A DNA stretch of 64,000 bases from Syntrophales bacterium (GCA_963662405.2 CAXXKT010000001.1:1568001-1632000), one strand, 5' to 3'; positions 2,083 to 13,971 are shown, numbered from the stretch's first letter. The notes: generated by a model not told the origin, from the letters alone. Numbers and translations are program-made.

Positions 2083-2532
2083 ATGAAGAAGATGATGGAG
2101 ACAGTGATCGACATCGCCATCGACCGGGAGATAGCGGCCGGTGACTTTTACCGGGACCTTGCCGGGAAAGTTGAGGATCGGGCCGTCAGGGACACCCTGA
2201 CCTTTCTTGCGGGGGAGGAACAGAACCACCGGGATTTCCTGATGGGATACCGTGACGGACGTTACGGGTCCGATGCGCTGTGCCTGACCGATACCGTCGA
2301 TTACAAGATAGCCGAGTACCTGGGAGAACCCGACACCAGCGGGGAGATGAAAAGCGCGGATGTGTATCTCGTCGCGACTCATCGGGAGTTCCAGTTATAC
2401 CTCTTCTACCGGGCGCTGGCCGACCTGCATCCGGACGGCGAGATCAGGGAGATGCTCCTTCGGATTGCCGGCGAGGAGATGCGGCACAAGGAGAAGGTGG
2501 GATACCTGTGCAGCAATGTGGCCTTTCCGTAG
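2083..2532 (+). CDS. Rubrerythrin/ferritin-like di-iron protein
   Basis: AIDREIAAGDFY, EEQNH, EEMRH ExxH motifs; RBS GGAGGA. Confidence 0.8.
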   Translation: MKKMMETVIDIAIDREIAAGDFYRDLAGKVEDRAVRDTLTFLAGEEQNHRDFLMGYRDGRYGSDALCLTDTVDYKIAEYLGEPDTSGEMKSADVYLVATHREFQLYLFYRALADLHPDGEIREMLLRIAGEEMRHKEKVGYLCSNVAFP

Positions 2533-2566
2533 ACGGCGGGAGGCTGAGAGACAAAAGGAGGGATCC

Positions 2567-2941
2567 ATGTTTCATGACCGGTTGTCACGGCAGGCGTGTG
2601 CGGTATTCTTTCTTCTCTTATTGTTGACCCTTGCCCTGTGGCCGACCATGGCCCGCGGCCACGGGCCGAAGGATGTCGTTCTGGCCTACGATCCAGGGTC
2701 CCGGACCCTGCGCGTCACTATTACCCATACCGTATCGAACCCTCAAAAACACTACGTTAAAACAGTCTCCATCGCCAGAAACGGAGAACTCGTCACAAAA
2801 GAAAAGTACACGGACCAACCGGTCCCCTCGTCCTTCTCATACACGTACACTGTCGAAGCAGAACCGGGAGATAGACTCGAGGTCACGGCCGACTGCAACT
2901 ATTTCGGATCGAAAACGGGAGAGTTCACTCTCGGCAGGTAA
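2567..2941 (+). CDS. Exported small metal-binding protein (desulfoferrodoxin/SOR ferrous-site-like Ig fold)
   Basis: RBS AAGGAGG, signal peptide, mature N-terminal His, H...HY...CNYFG pattern. Confidence 0.55.
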   Translation: MFHDRLSRQACAVFFLLLLLTLALWPTMARGHGPKDVVLAYDPGSRTLRVTITHTVSNPQKHYVKTVSIARNGELVTKEKYTDQPVPSSFSYTYTVEAEPGDRLEVTADCNYFGSKTGEFTLGR

Positions 2942-2978
2942 CAAGGTCATTGGAGGAAACGCGCACGGGAGGAGTCCT

Positions 2979-3365
2979 ATGATCTTCATCCATGCAGGGT
3001 GCATGTCTGCGGGTCTTCTGTTGCTGAGTGTCGGGGTTTCCGGAGCCATGATGATGCGAAAAAAGGAATGGTGGCTTCGCGTTCATCGGCGGTGCGGCAC
3101 CGCGGGAGTGGTCGGTGTCCTCCTCGGATTGGCGGTTGCCCTGTACATGGTTTCCGGGCAGACAGGACGGCATTGTGCCGTCCCGCACGCCTGGCTGGGG
3201 ATCATCACGGTTCTTGCCGTGGTGTGCACGTACCTGATCGGAGTGGCGCAGCTCAAGATGAGGGTACCCCGCATGCGACCGCTGCACCGGTGGGTCGGTC
3301 GTGTGACGCTCGCGCTGCTGGTCATCAATGTCCTGTCGGGACTGTCTCTGGTCGGGGTCATGTAG
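2979..3365 (+). CDS. 4-TM membrane protein with conserved His (cytochrome b561/DUF4079-like)
   Basis: Hydrophobic helices with IHAG, WLRVHR, PHAWLG, LHRWVGR. Confidence 0.6.
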   Translation: MIFIHAGCMSAGLLLLSVGVSGAMMMRKKEWWLRVHRRCGTAGVVGVLLGLAVALYMVSGQTGRHCAVPHAWLGIITVLAVVCTYLIGVAQLKMRVPRMRPLHRWVGRVTLALLVINVLSGLSLVGVM

Positions 3366-3457
3366 TTGGGGATCACGGGGAAAAGACTCTTTCAAGGTGG
3401 TGCGGTAAAACGGCAGGAAACCAGGGTTAAAATCGTCACGCAGAGGGAGGGTAAGGT

Positions 3458-3763
3458 ATGAATATCTATCATTTCTGTCTGGGAATCATGGTCTTTCCAC
3501 CGGCCTGTGCCTTCGCCGATGTCGGCGATGGCGGGTGTTGGTCCGGGTGGGGCCGTATGGGACCCGGGTTTGGAGGAATGTTTATGTGGATACTGCTTCT
3601 TGTCGCCGTCGGTCTGATCGCCTACTTTCTGGTGCGGGCGTCAAAAGAGGGGAACATCAGGGGCCCGCATGAGACGCCCCTCGATCTTCTCAAGAAACGA
3701 TACGCCCGGGGTGAGATCACCAAGGAGCAGTACGAAGAGATAAAGCAGGACCTGGAGGAGTGA
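3458..3763 (+). CDS. SHOCT domain membrane protein
   Basis: Gly-rich segment, TM helix, ETPLDLLKKRYARGEITKEQYEE. Confidence 0.85.
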   Translation: MNIYHFCLGIMVFPPACAFADVGDGGCWSGWGRMGPGFGGMFMWILLLVAVGLIAYFLVRASKEGNIRGPHETPLDLLKKRYARGEITKEQYEEIKQDLEE

Positions 3764-3867: not shown

Positions 3868-4089
3868 ATGGCTGAGATACGAGTGGACGTACGGGGAGAG
3901 ACCTGTCCGGTGCCCCTCGTGGAGACCCGCAAGGCGCTCAGGAAGGCCGTGGCGGGGGATACCCTGGAGATCACAGGAACGCATCCCGCTTCCAAGAAGG
4001 AGATACCCATGGCCCTGCAGGCGTTGGGTTTGGACGGGGTCGGGGTGCAGGAAGAGGGGGATGTGTGGACCATCAGGGTTCACGTTTGA
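3868..4089 (+). CDS. tusA: TusA-family sulfur carrier
   Basis: VDVRGETCPVP CPxP motif; RBS GGAGGT. Confidence 0.88.
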   Translation: MAEIRVDVRGETCPVPLVETRKALRKAVAGDTLEITGTHPASKKEIPMALQALGLDGVGVQEEGDVWTIRVHV

Positions 4090-4101
4090 AGGAGGGTACC
4101 T

Positions 4102-4521
4102 ATGGCAGATAAGGCAACCATCGTTGTTCACAGCGGGGATATGGACAAGGTGTACAGTGCCCTCATTATTGCCACCGGTGCTTTGTCCATGGGGATGGAG
4201 GCATCCCTCTACTTTACCTTCTGGGGACTCGAACGGCTCATCACGGGGAAACTGGAAGGGGGACGCCTCTCACGGATGCACCTCATGGGGATCGGGAAGT
4301 GGATGGTGCAAAGGCGGATGAAGGCGGCAAACGTGGCCTCCCTGGAACGGCTCCTTCAGGACTTCAAGGAACTGGGGGGGAAGATCATCGCCTGCGAAAT
4401 GACGATGCAGATCATGGGGATCAGACGGGAGGCCCTTCGCCGGGACCTGATCGACGAGTACGGTGCCGTGGGGACCTACGTGCAGGAGGCACGGGAGTCG
4501 AAGATCACCCTCTTCATATAA
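4102..4521 (+). CDS. DsrE/DsrF/DrsH-like sulfur relay protein
   Basis: LYFTFWGL, IIACEMTM, GAVGTYV motifs. Confidence 0.88.
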   Translation: MADKATIVVHSGDMDKVYSALIIATGALSMGMEASLYFTFWGLERLITGKLEGGRLSRMHLMGIGKWMVQRRMKAANVASLERLLQDFKELGGKIIACEMTMQIMGIRREALRRDLIDEYGAVGTYVQEARESKITLFI

Positions 4522-4533
4522 GGAGACGTTGCC

Positions 4534-5700
4534 ATGATTGAGAAGACCGTCTATCTCGACAATGCCGCGGCAACCCGGATGGACGAGCGGGTCCTGGAGG
4601 CCATGATACCGTACTTCTTCGAGACCTACCCGGTCGCCACGTCGGAGTTCGGCTATTCCCTCGGTATCGAGGCCCGGGAGGCACTGGAGAGGGCCCGGGA
4701 GGAGATCGCACACCGCCTCGGTGCCGACAGTGAGGAGTTCATCTTTACTTCGGGGAGCACCGAATCGAGTAACCTGGCCCTCAAGGGGGTGGCCCGCGCC
4801 CTCGGCGATAAGAAGGGGAGACATTTGATCATTTCCGCCATCGAGGACTTTCCCGTTCTTTACAGTGCCAGGGCCCTCGAGCGGCAGGGTTTCTCCGTCA
4901 CCTCCCTGGGAGTCGACCACGAGGGAGGTGTCGATCCCGAGAGGGTCCGGGATGCGATCACGGACGAGACTATCCTGGTCTCGATCCAGCACGCGAACCA
5001 GGAGATCGGGACGACCCAGGATATAAGAACCATCGGCCGCATCTGCCGCGAAAGAGGAGTCCTGTTCCACACCGACGCCACACACACCTTCACACGGGTA
5101 CCTCTCGATACCACCCAGGTGCCGGTGGACCTGATAACCCTCTCTCCCCATACGATCCACGGTCCGAAGGGGATCGGCGGCTTGTATATCCGGAAAGGAA
5201 CGCCCATCGCAAAATGGATGGACGGGGGGTTCCAGGAGTTCAATCTCAGGGCCGGTATGGAGAATATCCCGGGAGCTGTCGGTTTCGCGAAGGCGGTCGA
5301 TCTGGTTGTCCCCCGGGAGAACGAACAGATCGAGGCGATGCGGAATCACCTTATCGATCGCGTATCGGCCGAGGTACCGGACACGACCTTGAACGGACAC
5401 CGATCGAAGAGGACCCCGCAGAACGCGAACATCACCTTCCACTTCGTGGAGGGAGAATCAATTACCCTCCACCTCGACATGCGCGGCTTTGCCGTCAGCA
5501 CGGGTTCCGCCTGTTTCAGCCGGTCGCTGGAGGCGAGCCACGTGATCTTGGGGATCGGCGGGGATCATGAACGGGCGCACGGGTCGATTCGCCTCACCGC
5601 CGGTCGGTACAACACCATGGAAGAGATGGACTCGGTCGTAGACACGATCACCGAGGTGGTGGGAGAACTGCGGAAGATCAGCCCTTTGACCAGACAGTAA
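4534..5700 (+). CDS. IscS/NifS-like cysteine desulfurase homolog (PLP Lys replaced by Thr)
   Basis: YLDNAAAT, FTSGSTESSN, STGSACFS; SPHTIHGPKG instead of SxHKxxGPKG. Confidence 0.9.
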   Translation: MIEKTVYLDNAAATRMDERVLEAMIPYFFETYPVATSEFGYSLGIEAREALERAREEIAHRLGADSEEFIFTSGSTESSNLALKGVARALGDKKGRHLIISAIEDFPVLYSARALERQGFSVTSLGVDHEGGVDPERVRDAITDETILVSIQHANQEIGTTQDIRTIGRICRERGVLFHTDATHTFTRVPLDTTQVPVDLITLSPHTIHGPKGIGGLYIRKGTPIAKWMDGGFQEFNLRAGMENIPGAVGFAKAVDLVVPRENEQIEAMRNHLIDRVSAEVPDTTLNGHRSKRTPQNANITFHFVEGESITLHLDMRGFAVSTGSACFSRSLEASHVILGIGGDHERAHGSIRLTAGRYNTMEEMDSVVDTITEVVGELRKISPLTRQ

Positions 5701-5712
5701 GGAGGATCAACC

Positions 5713-6348
5713 ATGACTTTTCCATACAGCGACACGGTGTTGGAACACTTTCGTCACCCCCGCAACGTGGGGAAACTCGAAAACCCCGACGGAAATGCCT
5801 TGGAAGGGAGTCCGGCCTGTGGGGACATGGTGGGGGTCCAGATACAGGTCGATCCCGACACGAAGCAAATTACGGATATCAAATTCGAATCCTACGGCTG
5901 TGCCTCCAACATAGCAACGGGTTCCATCATTACCGAACTGGCAAAGGGGAAAACACTCGACGAGGCCAAGAAAATCACGTGGAAGGAGGCGTCGGAGGCC
6001 CTGGGGGGATTGCCCCCGATCAAGGCCCACTGCTCGGTCCTCGCCGTCGAGGGACTCCGCTCGGCGATCCGGAACTATGAGGAACGTCACGGCCTGATTA
6101 CGGATCAAGAACCCACTACCGTGGAGGGTGTCCGCAGGCGCCTCCAGAAGGTGATGAATCCCCTCTCGGGGCTCGATCTGGTTCGAACGGAACTGGTCAA
6201 AGAGATCTCGGTCGATCAGGGGATCGTCCGTGTGACGGTGGATATCCCCGCCGGCCATCAGTTCGCCCCTAATATCAGAGACGAGATCGTGGAGAAGATA
6301 CAGCCCCTCTGGGACGTGGAACGGGTGGAGGTCCTCTTCACGGAGTAA
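5713..6348 (+). CDS. IscU/NifU-N scaffold fused to a DUF59/MIP18-like domain
   Basis: HFRHPRNVG, PACGD, YGC, KAHC; C-terminal LQKVMNPLSGLDLVRTELV. Confidence 0.85.
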   Translation: MTFPYSDTVLEHFRHPRNVGKLENPDGNALEGSPACGDMVGVQIQVDPDTKQITDIKFESYGCASNIATGSIITELAKGKTLDEAKKITWKEASEALGGLPPIKAHCSVLAVEGLRSAIRNYEERHGLITDQEPTTVEGVRRRLQKVMNPLSGLDLVRTELVKEISVDQGIVRVTVDIPAGHQFAPNIRDEIVEKIQPLWDVERVEVLFTE

Positions 6349-10485: not shown

Positions 10486-10724
10486 CCTCTCTCCCTTCGT
10501 CTCAGCAGTTTAAAAAAGAATTCTAACGGTTTTTCGAGCGCACCGCAAGCATGGGTTTTCATGTGGGGGCGGACCATTTTCCCCACTGAAATATCCTTGA
10601 CTCGCCTGCGTCTTATTCTTATACTTGCTCGGACTGCGGGGAGTTCTTGCCACAAGTTTTTTTCCGAGTACTGATAGCGTTACTGTTGCATCGATTATGG
10701 GCCGGGAAGGAGATTTGGGAGAAG

Positions 10725-13700
10725 ATGATTGATCGATCGCAATCATACGGCACGGAAAAGCAGGAGCAGGGTCCCGGAACGAGCGATATGTCCGGTCTTC
10801 CGGAAGTCATCCTGTCGCATGTCGGCGTCGGCATCTATATCGTACAGGATGGCGTGTTTGTGTATACCAGTCCGCTGTATCAAAGGATGACCGGTTATTC
10901 GGATCCCGATCTCATCGGTCGAAACTCCCTCGATTTTCTTCACCCCGACGACAGGACTTCCGTCAGAGACCATGCCACCGAAATCCTCAAGGGAAAACGC
11001 TCCGAACCATACGAATACCGATTTATCAAAAGCGATGGTGAAACGATGTGGATCCTGGAGATGGTCACCTCTGTCGCGTATCACGGCAAGCGGGCCACCC
11101 TGGGGAGTTTCATGGATATCACCGAACGCAGACGGATACAGGAGATGCTCCGCCAGTCCGAGGAAAAGTACCGGGCTATTATCGACAATATCCAGGACGG
11201 TTATTTCGAACTCGATCTTGCCGGGAACCATACCTTTTGCAACGGCGCCCTGTGCGAGATTCACGGGTATCCCAAAGATGAATTGCTGGGGATGAACAAC
11301 CGGCAGTACACCGATCAAACGAACGCAGAGAAGGTGTTTCATGCCTTTCGTTCCATCTACAGGACTGGAGACCCCGGCAGGGTATTTGATTATGAGATCA
11401 TACGCAGAGATGGCACCAGGAGACAGGTTGAGGTGTCGGCATCGCTCAAGAAAGACGCTTCCGGTACACCGATCGGATTCAGTGGGATTACCCGGGACAT
11501 CAGTGAACGCAAACAGGCAGAAGAGGCGGCTCGCCGCAGCGACGAGAGGGCCCGAAGTATCCTCGACTCCATAGAGGATGGCTACTGGGAGGTGAATCTT
11601 GAAGGACAGTTTACTTTCTTCAACGACGCCATGTGTAGAATGTCGCATCTGTCACGGGAAGAACTCCTGGGCACAAATCTCTCCACCGGTGCCGCGCCCG
11701 AGGCGGCGGAGAGGCTGGCCGAGGCATTTCGGGAGGTCTCCCGGACCGGTGTCCCCCTTCAGCTGGCCGACTACGGGATAACGAGGGGAGACGGAACGAG
11801 AGGTACCTATGAGATCAGTGCCTCGCTGATGAAGGATCAGGCGGGAGGGGCAATTGGTTTCCAGGGCATCACCCGTGACATCACGAAACGCAAAACGATG
11901 GAGGACCAAATCCGTCACTCCGAGGAGCGATACCGCACCATAGTGGAACAGATGGAGGACGGATACTTCGAAACGGATCTCCGTGGTCGTATGACCTTTG
12001 TGAATGACGCGGAATGCAGGAATATCGGATTTTCCCGGGAAGAATTGATCGGGAGGGACAGCCGATTATTCGCCGATAAGGACACCTTTCAAGACCTTTC
12101 AAACGCCTTTGCAGAGGTTTACCGGACGGGGATACCCGTTCGGGCGCATGCCTTCGCGGTTACCCAGAAAGGCGGGTCAGAGGCCTTTCACGAGATATCC
12201 GTTTCCCTCATAAAAGATTCGGAGGGAAAACCGACCGGATTTCGCGGCATCGCCAGGGATGTGACCGAACGGAAGGTCATGGAGGAGCAGATACGCCAGT
12301 CCGAAGAGCGGTATCGTACCATTATCGAAGAGATGGAAGAGTGGTATGTGGAGGCCGACCTGGCCGGGACGATTCTTTTCTGTAACGATATCTTTGCCAC
12401 CGGTTTGGGACATGCTCCCGGGGAGTTGGCGAGGGTAAATTTCCGTCGGTTCGTGAGACGGGAGGCGGTCGAGGCTATCTACCGGGAATTTCATAATGTC
12501 TATCAAACGGGCGAACCCTCCCGGAATTTGCCCTATGAGTTTGCACGGCCTGACGGCAGCACAACCTCCACCGAATTTTCCATTTTTCCAAGACGAAATC
12601 ATGAGGGGAAGATTGTCGGGTTTCGGGGGGTCGGACGGGACATCACGGAGCGCAAACGCGCCGAAGAGAGGATTCAATATCTCGCCACACATGATACCCT
12701 GACGGGGCTTCCCAATCGTTTGATGTTCGCCCAGCACCTGAACCATGCCATCCAGGCAGCCCGCCGGCACAAACGGCGGCTTGCGGTCCTCTTCTTTGAT
12801 CTGGACCGCTTCAAGGTTGTCAATGATACGCTGGGGCACGAGGCGGGTGATCAACTGCTCAGAGCGATCGCCGTGCGTTTGAGAGAGCGGTTGCGGGCGG
12901 TCGATGTCATCGCCCGTCTGGGGGGGGGATGAATTCGTGATCCTGGTCGAAGAGGTGGGCGATGAGGAGCAGGTCATCACCGTCGCCCAGCATGTCCTTG
13001 CGGCTATCATAAAACCGATTATGATTATGGAACAGGAGTGTCGCATAACGGCAAGTATCGGTATCAGCATCTATCCCCAGCACGGCGAGGATGAACAGTC
13101 ATTGATGAAAAATGCCGATATAGCCATGTACTTCGCCAAGGAAGAGGGAAAGAACAATTATCAACTGTACTCCACGGATATCAAGACCCAATCGATCGAA
13201 CGCCTCTCGATTGAGACGAATCTCCGCGAGGCACTGCAACGAGACGAATTTTCCCTCCATTACCAAGCCAAGCTGGATTTCAAGACCGGGGCGATTACCG
13301 GTGTGGAAGCCCTGCTTCGTTGGGACAACCCGGCTCTCGGTTCGGTCACCCCACTGCAATTCATACCGGTCGCTGAAGAAACGGGGTTGATCGTTCCCAT
13401 CGGCCGCTGGGTCCTGAAGACTGCCTGCGCCCAGAATATCGACTGGCAGCGCCAGGGCCTTCCCCCTCTCTGCATGGCGGTGAATCTGTCGCTGCGCCAG
13501 CTGACAGACGAGGGTCTCCTGAGCGACATCCAAACGACACTCGGGGAAACCGGGATGGCACCGCATCTGCTGGAACTCGAAATTACGGAAAGTATGGTCA
13601 TGCACGATCCTCCGCGCATGGTCAAGATACTCTCCGAAATCAAGAAGATGGGTGTACGACTTGCCCTCGACGATTTCGGGACCGGATACTCTTCTCTTGC

Positions 13701-13971
13701 ACAGCTCAAGCAATTCCCGATCGATACCCTCAAGGTGGACCGGTCCTTCATCAGAAATATACCGAATGATTCGGAAGAAAACGCGATTACCGAGGCGATC
13801 ATTTCCATGGGCAGGATCCTCGGCCTGACCGTTGTTGCTGAAGGCGTTGAAACACGGGATCAGATGGATTTTCTGCGGAAGAGGGCATGTGACGAGATGC
13901 AGGGATTTTACTTCAGCAAACCCATCCTTCCCGACCAGTTCGCCCGACTGATGGAAGCCCATAAACCGTAA
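10725..13971 (+). CDS. 5xPAS-GGDEF-EAL c-di-GMP enzyme (apparent +1 frameshift in G9 at 12920-12928)
   Basis: Five PAS/PAC units ending D(I/V)(T/S)(E/K)R; HDTLTGLPNR, DLDRFK, RLGG/DEF split across frames; EALLRW, DDFGTGYSS. Confidence 0.92.

Follow-up and report, generated by a model that had tools for sequence, protein, structure and literature searches.

In a 64,000-nucleotide stretch of DNA from a Syntrophales bacterium (GCA_963662405.2 CAXXKT010000001.1:1568001-1632000; here called the window), the genes tusA, dsrE, iscS and iscU form an operon whose IscS, written IscS* below, lacks the lysine that makes the Schiff base with pyridoxal 5'-phosphate (PLP). On sequence grounds, the cluster is a real and widespread variant of the IscS-IscU minimal system that is common to many oxygen-avoiding bacteria and archaea. 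We see about an even chance that it is a cysteine-independent relay, in which sulfur would pass from DsrE to TusA, on to the IscS* cysteine and then to IscU. More tentatively, it may represent a distinct cysteine-independent TusA-DsrE-pseudoIscS-IscU system of anaerobes, recruited at least twice onto IscS proteins without the lysine, that is both the sulfide route of Methanosarcina and the sulfur supply of Archaeoglobus fulgidus. Loss of the lysine and the gene cluster itself are already in print for Methanosarcina acetivorans (PMC7585200).

The operon and its lysine-less IscS

The operon spans positions 3868-6348 as four open reading frames (ORFs) on the + strand, with 12 bases between each neighbouring pair and GGAG preceding the start; ORFs and Pfam matches thus bear out the original prediction of a tusA-dsrE-iscS*-iscU operon at this place. 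The iscU ORF (5713-6348) encodes 211 aa, with a NifU_N domain fused to a C-terminal FeS_assembly_P/DUF59 domain. A scan for promoters and terminators gave 2 and 5 sites where 1.1 and 2.0 were expected, and placed no site at the operon ends. The features are as follows, with counts among the closest homologues and, where stated, lysine-bearing controls:

3868..4089, + strand: tusA, 73 aa; Pfam PF01206, E 5e-20; Cys13 in CPVP; Arg21, Arg25, His39
4102..4521, + strand: dsrE2-type gene, 139 aa; Pfam PF13686 (DrsE_2), E 3e-33; sole cysteine Cys98, codon 4393-4395
4534..5700, + strand: iscS*, 388 aa; Aminotran_5; homologue of group I desulfurases without the PLP lysine
4846..4848, + strand: Asp105 in place of His104, 120/120 homologues; His in 71/71 lysine-bearing controls
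5083..5085, + strand: His184 in place of Gln183, 119/120 homologues; Gln in 71/71 controls
5152..5154, + strand: Thr207 (ACG) in place of the Schiff-base Lys206, in SPH-T-IHGPKG
5512..5514, + strand: Cys327, the loop cysteine, kept (STGSACFS), 120/120 homologues
5590..5592, + strand: Arg353, equivalent of E. coli Arg354, kept, 120/120; replaced in 7/7 other lysine-less types compared
5713..6129, + strand: IscU scaffold domain; NifU_N, E 2e-41; Tyr5, Cys36, Asp38, Cys63, Lys104, His106, Cys107
6130..6348, + strand: C-terminal DUF59 (FeS_assembly_P) domain, cysteine-free, NPLSG...PAGHQF; PF01883, E 1e-13, residues 140-207

IscS* has the class V PLP fold and the group I loop motif with its catalytic cysteine, and its best NCBIfam model is NifS, yet it scores under the cut-off of that model and of the IscS model too. 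The group I desulfurase residues Lys206, His104 and Gln183 are Thr, Asp and His here, and SPH-T-IHGPKG (ACG at 5152-5154), AIEDFPV, DATH, the retained GSAC and the three IscU cysteines all read as first described. Among the 120 best of 7,980 matches (three of them the window's own protein or near-identical to it), the lysine position holds Thr in 118, Pro in 1, Ile in 1 and Lys in none. Asp105, Asn155, Asp181, Cys327 and Arg353 are found in all 120, His184 in 119 and His206 in 116, while Thr243 is replaced in every one; Asp105, Phe106, Gln156, His209 and Phe328 are new residues fixed in the IscS* clade. Across 71 lysine-bearing homologues from the same genome sets, the equivalents of His104, Gln183, His205, Thr243 and Arg354 are each present in 71.

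Thr207 is genuine, neither a sequencing error nor a chance change, because none of the 120 homologues has Lys, the gene order is kept and all four Thr codons are in use. Where the motif was read, in 78 of 80 loci (here and below, the best 80 of 493 relatives of any kind), the codon is ACC in 42, ACG in 17, ACT in 12, ACA in 6 and AGC in one. The worry that the Thr might be a strain-specific error can accordingly be set aside, with no Lys in 120 homologues and the gene order found in 67 of the 80 loci. Aligned contigs from four runs brought no new information on the codon save for one identical contig, itself perhaps the source of the sequence. That the gene is a sequencing error or a decaying pseudogene has a negligible probability: nothing speaks for it besides apparent frameshifts elsewhere in the window (dnaK), and it is refuted by the conservation and by the transcription of the M. 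acetivorans orthologues.

In E. coli IscS, the substitutions H104Q, Q183E and K206A each leave a protein without desulfurase activity (PMC9978102), and because all three of these essential positions are changed here, IscS* very likely lacks normal desulfurase chemistry. A structure model of IscS* has a mean predicted local distance difference test score (pLDDT) of 69.6 and matches the NFS1/IscS fold; with active-site loops below 50, its pocket is not resolved and it carries no information on PLP binding.

Carriers, scaffold and distribution

The TusA of the window has the CPxP cysteine and matches PF01206 at 71.5 bits against a cut-off of 28.6, and lies below the NCBIfam equivalog cut-offs for TusA, YedF and YeeD. 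Cys13 is kept in 72 of 73 TusAs, and Arg21, Arg25 and His39 in all 73; His39 corresponds to Asp in the TusAs that stand beside IscS proteins with Asp at the lysine position (Asp-type). DsrE, with Cys98 in 74/74, belongs to PF13686 and scores 60 against the NCBIfam DsrE2 model, whose cut-off is 210; its nearest solved structure is 2QS7, which is named DsrE2B (PMC4175335). Extra cysteines at TusA 8 and DsrE 121, absent from the window, occur together in 42, neither in 16 and mixed in 13 of 71 loci, a pairing that may reflect kinship.

The scaffold is intact: Tyr5, Cys36, Asp38, Cys63, Lys104, His106 and Cys107 of IscU are each found in 73/73, so that the three cysteines and the equivalents of Asp39, Lys103 and His105 are all retained. 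No solved relative was found for the DUF59 domain on its own. Of the residues of E. coli IscS described as contacting IscU (PMC2854127), the equivalents of Glu308, Ser309, Glu346 and Arg380 are retained in 78 of 80 IscS* rows, the other 2 being gaps. The E. coli IscS-TusA complex is held by the salt bridges Arg27-Glu49-Arg31-Asp52 (PMC2854127). Equivalents are Arg21 and Arg25 of TusA, in 73/73, and Glu49 of IscS*, in 26/26 members as against 14/71 lysine-bearing controls. The arginines were mapped by their spacing from the CPxP cysteine, which we take to be residue 19 in E. coli TusA.

The full order tusA-dsrE-iscS-iscU holds at 67 of the 80 loci, with tusA in 73, dsrE in 74 and a three-cysteine IscU in 73; the remaining loci lie at contig ends, are rearranged (Anaerolineae) or show no partners in the flank (L067, L083, L089). 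At 12 loci checked over bacteria and archaea, the four proteins are 59-89% identical to those of the window. The closest named relatives, at 82-88% IscS* identity, come mostly from Syntrophales or Syntrophaceae, and hosts of the clade include Syntrophales, Dehalococcoidia, Anaerolineae, Nitrospirae, Atribacterota, Actinomycetota, Methanofastidiosum, Methanohalophilus, Methanomassiliicoccales and others. IscS* forms one starred clade (100/100), essentially a single cluster at 50% identity. Its occurrence is patchy, with 2 of 401 genomes of its own phylum, 11 of 41 near relatives and 26 of 251 genomes in the archaeal phylum of genome G082, and because identity across domains is nonetheless about 70%, the data suggest that the cassette spread horizontally.

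The carriers follow IscS* closely. DsrE at 66-72% identity is present in exactly the 26 of 251 archaeal genomes that have IscS*, with weaker matches (58-61%) in two genomes, both without it; the carriers are adjacent to iscS* in 22 of the 26, and in the other 4 the tusA-dsrE pair lies 111-128 kb away. Among the 41 near relatives, the identical 11 hold both IscS* and DsrE, one of the IscS* genes being a contig-end fragment. The survey of lysine-less homologues and their neighbourhoods that the original prediction had proposed yields the same tie. Small profiles for TusA and DsrE, run against 149 loci, place tusA and/or dsrE within about 1.2-1.5 kb of 9/9 Thr-type, 25/27 Asp-type, 5/17 Asn/Pro/Gln-type and 1/96 lysine-bearing iscS genes, the loci being top hits of directed searches with non-independent kin among them, and the profiles being seeded with the carriers of one Asp-type and one Pro-type locus that both count as hits. 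The single lysine-bearing hit is a TusA-like gene by a different desulfurase, and there is none in the 34 lysine-bearing loci with both flanks of at least 1.4 kb. A simple scan for the motif G..CP.P gave 22/27 Asp-type against 2/96 lysine-bearing loci, and Pfam confirmed 10 of the 10 carriers checked. Because of this co-occurrence, the linkage scan and the conserved salt-bridge residues, we regard the carriers, on comparative evidence, as part of the IscS*-IscU system.

The closest known case is isc1 of M. acetivorans, which comprises MA0810 (SirA/TusA-like), MA0809 (DsrE), MA0808 (IscS1) and MA0807 (IscU1, 24 kDa), and for which Deere et al. 2020 noted that IscS1 lacks the lysine and proposed a role like that in A. 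fulgidus (PMC7585200). Sequence comparison makes the window cluster its bacterial orthologue: the four genes and their order are identical, IscS1 carries YAVATSEFGYS, IEDFPV, DATH, HTIHGP and STGSACFSRSL, IscU1 shares the C-terminal extension, and a by-eye check of the printed alignment revealed nothing of substance that differs (PMC7585200). The window thus shows the whole isc1 pattern of tusA, dsrE, an iscS with HTIHGP, IEDF and GSACFS, and a long iscU. The available portion of that paper, supplement included, gives no carrier role for MA0810 or MA0809. More broadly, in full-text literature that takes in few subscription journals, we found no account of a role for the carriers, of the breadth of the clade or of the carrier link in Asp-type loci. 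MA0807-MA0810 are transcribed, and over 61 libraries (rows of PMC5112694, an RNA half-life study) their reads per kilobase per million correlate with one another at a Spearman coefficient of 0.95-0.99 and with iscS2 at 0.00-0.09, a correlation that may stem in part from the RNA decay series. Apparent induction on acetate (edgeR log2 0.85-2.6 over methanol) was given no weight, since per-cell counts are similar or lower. The readable parts of PMC10846266 and PMC9124975, with supplement text readable in part, contain nothing on expression of the cluster by sulfur source.

The parallel with A. fulgidus IscS, drawn at the outset from the lost lysine, holds for that loss, but the two proteins are of different types. 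The A. fulgidus protein has no activity and donates a cysteine ligand to the IscU cluster (PMC7585200, bioRxiv 10.1101/2024.03.20.586028, PMC13066941). In the IscS2-IscU structures (PDB 4EB5, 4EB7, 4HVK; D199K, 4R5F) the Schiff-base lysine is likewise gone, the loop cysteine kept and IscU the partner, whereas the sequence is about 42% identical, has Asp (SND) in place of Thr, retains His104 and lacks Arg354 and His205. IscS*, with His104 replaced and Arg353 kept, shows the reverse pattern and falls outside the Asp type. A. fulgidus IscU also lacks DUF59, and its DsrE best matches PF02635 rather than the PF13686 of the window. The gene of PDB 4EB5 (379 of 380 residues identical) follows a dsrE cut at its 5' end, and a paralogue elsewhere in that genome stands in a tusA-dsrE-iscS-iscU cluster. 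With MIS (MisS-MisU), which a 2026 review describes as a desulfurase and a scaffold and nothing further (PMC13066941), and with E. coli IscS-TusA and IscS-IscU, the cluster shares the group I fold, the IscU scaffold and, largely, the docking residues; unlike MIS, it lacks the catalytic residues and adds two carriers, whose linkage holds in 67 of 80 loci.

Direction of sulfur flow

IscS* is probably no enzyme but a protein that serves for docking and sulfur relay; the sulfur, which it probably cannot cut from cysteine, likely comes from the carriers. In the proposed relay, Cys98 of DsrE would capture or mobilise inorganic or sulfane sulfur and hand it to Cys13 of TusA; TusA, bound to IscS* where TusA normally docks, would load Cys327, opposite to the E. 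coli direction; IscU would then receive the sulfur from the Cys327 loop, which, as in A. fulgidus, may also provide a ligand to the [2Fe-2S] cluster as it forms; and the fused DUF59 domain would aid in handing the cluster on. We favour this inward flow because IscS* probably cannot form a persulfide by itself, IscU is intact, the docking surfaces are kept and the carriers track lysine-less IscS. DsrE proteins that pass sulfur to TusA have been described before (PMC4175335, PMC11094781). The relays of sulfur oxidisers, such as DsrE3A-DsrE2B-TusA of M. cuprina, resemble the cluster in their dsrE-tusA pair and conserved cysteines, but they feed Dsr or sHdr oxidation, genes for which are absent from the flanks of IscS* loci, and their DsrE2B type is unreactive in vitro (PMC4175335).

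Several observations weigh against the relay. The TusA/DsrE-fed module first predicted gains from the very likely loss of desulfurase activity and from the carrier tie across genomes, but its nearest DsrE type, DsrE2B, was inert in M. cuprina toward every sulfur compound tried, and M. cuprina TusA and DsrE3A showed no reaction to NaSH, persulfide, polysulfide or thiosulfate (PMC4175335). M. acetivorans IscS1 by itself was insoluble, in inclusion bodies (PMC7585200), and neither A. fulgidus iscS2U2, even with sulfide, nor the M. thermoacetophila pair complemented E. coli (bioRxiv 10.1101/2024.03.20.586028). The TusA interface is kept only in part (Trp45 is Ile, TusA Glu21 is Val or Ile), 12/17 Asn/Pro/Gln-type and 2/27 Asp-type loci have no nearby carrier, and in the carrier search genome G061 gave no match and genome G021 has dsrE in two pieces. 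Kinship among the loci must also be reckoned with, and co-occurrence is silent on direction. Most hosts, moreover, possess a second route: SufB is present in 43 of 54 host genomes, a lysine-bearing IscS stands beside iscU in 22 of 50, and of the 12 of 50 in which IscS* is the sole class V match, 11 have SufB. The module probably serves in an auxiliary or condition-specific way and would not be the sole route.

Three other explanations share parts of this evidence. Sulfur might flow outward, from an IscU cluster (built from free sulfide, or damaged) through Cys327 to TusA and DsrE and on to a thio-cofactor, tRNA or storage, which we consider unlikely. It has in its favour that E. coli IscS gives to TusA through the same interface, here kept, that SufBC already covers cluster assembly in the 43 of 54 hosts, and that Thi4, HcyBio and fdhD adjoin three Dehalococcoidia loci. 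Yet no client enzyme was found as a conserved neighbour in the 80 loci, IscU retains every assembly residue and DUF59, and HcyBio occurs in 36/54 hosts against 25/26 relatives without the operon, figures on which a link to sulfide-dependent homocysteine synthesis was rejected. It is quite unlikely that IscS* is only a ligand and platform, with IscU taking free sulfide and with TusA and DsrE outside the sulfur path, as co-regulated redox or sulfur-buffering aids to a stress or repair module. It matches the view published for A. fulgidus (PMC7585200, bioRxiv 10.1101/2024.03.20.586028), and rubrerythrin- or ferritin-like, superoxide dismutase, Crp-type, glutaredoxin, ferredoxin-thioredoxin reductase (FTR) and heavy-metal ATPase neighbours recur in some lineages; each of these, however, is found in at most 9 of 80 loci within 2.2 kb, and the fixed TusA-docking set of Glu49, Arg21 and Arg25, like the repeated linkage of carriers to lysine-less and not lysine-bearing IscS, is left unexplained.

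A remodelled enzyme or sensor is distinctly improbable, though it accounts for residues that a pure relay does not. Such a protein would bind PLP without the lysine, or an amino-acid ligand, and draw on another sulfur donor, such as cysteine persulfide or S-sulfocysteine, to feed IscU and TusA. Arg353, Asn155, Asp181, Thr76 and His206 have no evident reason to be kept in a relay, new residues are fixed, and Arg354 is lost in the other lysine-less types; moreover, the K206A variant of E. coli IscS retains PLP binding and forms adducts with cysteine (PMC9978102), which also tells against the relay. Conversely, His104 and Thr243 are gone in all 120 homologues, position 75 of the phosphate loop is acidic (Asp/Glu) in 13/26 archaeal members, and the model, with its pocket unresolved and loops at pLDDT <50, lends this explanation no help.

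If the DsrE-TusA-IscS*-IscU relay operates, the carriers would make two puzzles testable, the sulfur supply of A. fulgidus IscS-IscU and the sulfide route of M. acetivorans. The A. fulgidus iscS2U2 construct that failed in E. coli contained no carriers (bioRxiv 10.1101/2024.03.20.586028). In M. acetivorans, deletion of sufBC or iscSU2 gave no sulfide phenotype and the authors call for further factors (PMC10500019); the expressed isc1 operon makes that question directly testable. Many anaerobe proteins labelled 'cysteine desulfurase' are probably not desulfurases, IscS* being the sole such match in 12/50 host genomes.

Other lysine-less types and gene neighbourhoods

Further lysine-less types exist, since a residue other than Lys occupies this position in 18 of the 150 best cluster representatives; P0124, P0135, P0136, P0142, P0177, P0188 and P0189 are IscS-like representatives in which other residues stand in for His104 and Lys206. 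Thr-type and Asp-type IscS are sisters at 68/93 in one tree, at a node that is not starred. Under LG+G4, with no mixture model, the approximately unbiased test did not reject a single origin of all lysine-less types with 46 rows (p 0.44) and weakly rejected it with 42 rows (p 0.039). A Pro/Gln-type subclade (L024/L179, L224, L225, L237) has the order iscS-iscU-dsrE2-tusA, and because this order differs, the subclade seems to have recruited its carriers separately. Lysine-bearing IscS domains recur as fusions inside open frames of about 1,130-1,230 aa (L140, L142, L143, L146, L148-L152, L156, L160).

The genome of the window also carries sufC-sufB, a lone lysine-bearing group I enzyme and a lysine-bearing enzyme beside YedF, and its sole IscS adjoining an IscU is the lysine-less IscS*. 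One separate IscU-like gene adjoins a gene that, from its motifs, we take to be Mrp-like. No SepCysS match above cut-off was found in this genome, and a selenium link was rejected because YedF adjoins another, lysine-bearing enzyme, in a search that did not include selD.

Around the operon, loci vary in their neighbours. In seven Chloroflexota loci (L063, L068, L073, L075, L080, L082, L087) one or two Asp/Glu racemase-family genes separate iscS* from iscU, and sufC-sufB lies immediately upstream on the same strand at L070:2891-4875. Five Anaerolineae loci (L049, L083, L089, L091, L110) have the cassette rearranged with a Crp-type regulator, ferredoxin, ferritin, glutaredoxin and FTR, and also a stand-alone cysteine-containing DUF59. 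In L041, L047 and L108 the operon stands between Thi4/HcyBio and fdhD plus a normal iscS-iscU pair, with a cysK-like gene also in L047, a sulfur-metabolism island. Upstream of the operon in the window (2083-3763) are small rubrerythrin-like, cytochrome b561-like and SHOCT genes, SHOCT being near 9 of 80 loci. A dnaK-like gene runs over two frames at 2-1841 (2-853 and 747-1841), intact in L035 (638 aa), probably through an assembly indel. At 10647-13971, a frame presumably PAS-rich by its motifs (10647-12932), with a GGDEF-like start at its end, overlaps a presumed EAL frame (12904-13971) in a frameshift-like manner.

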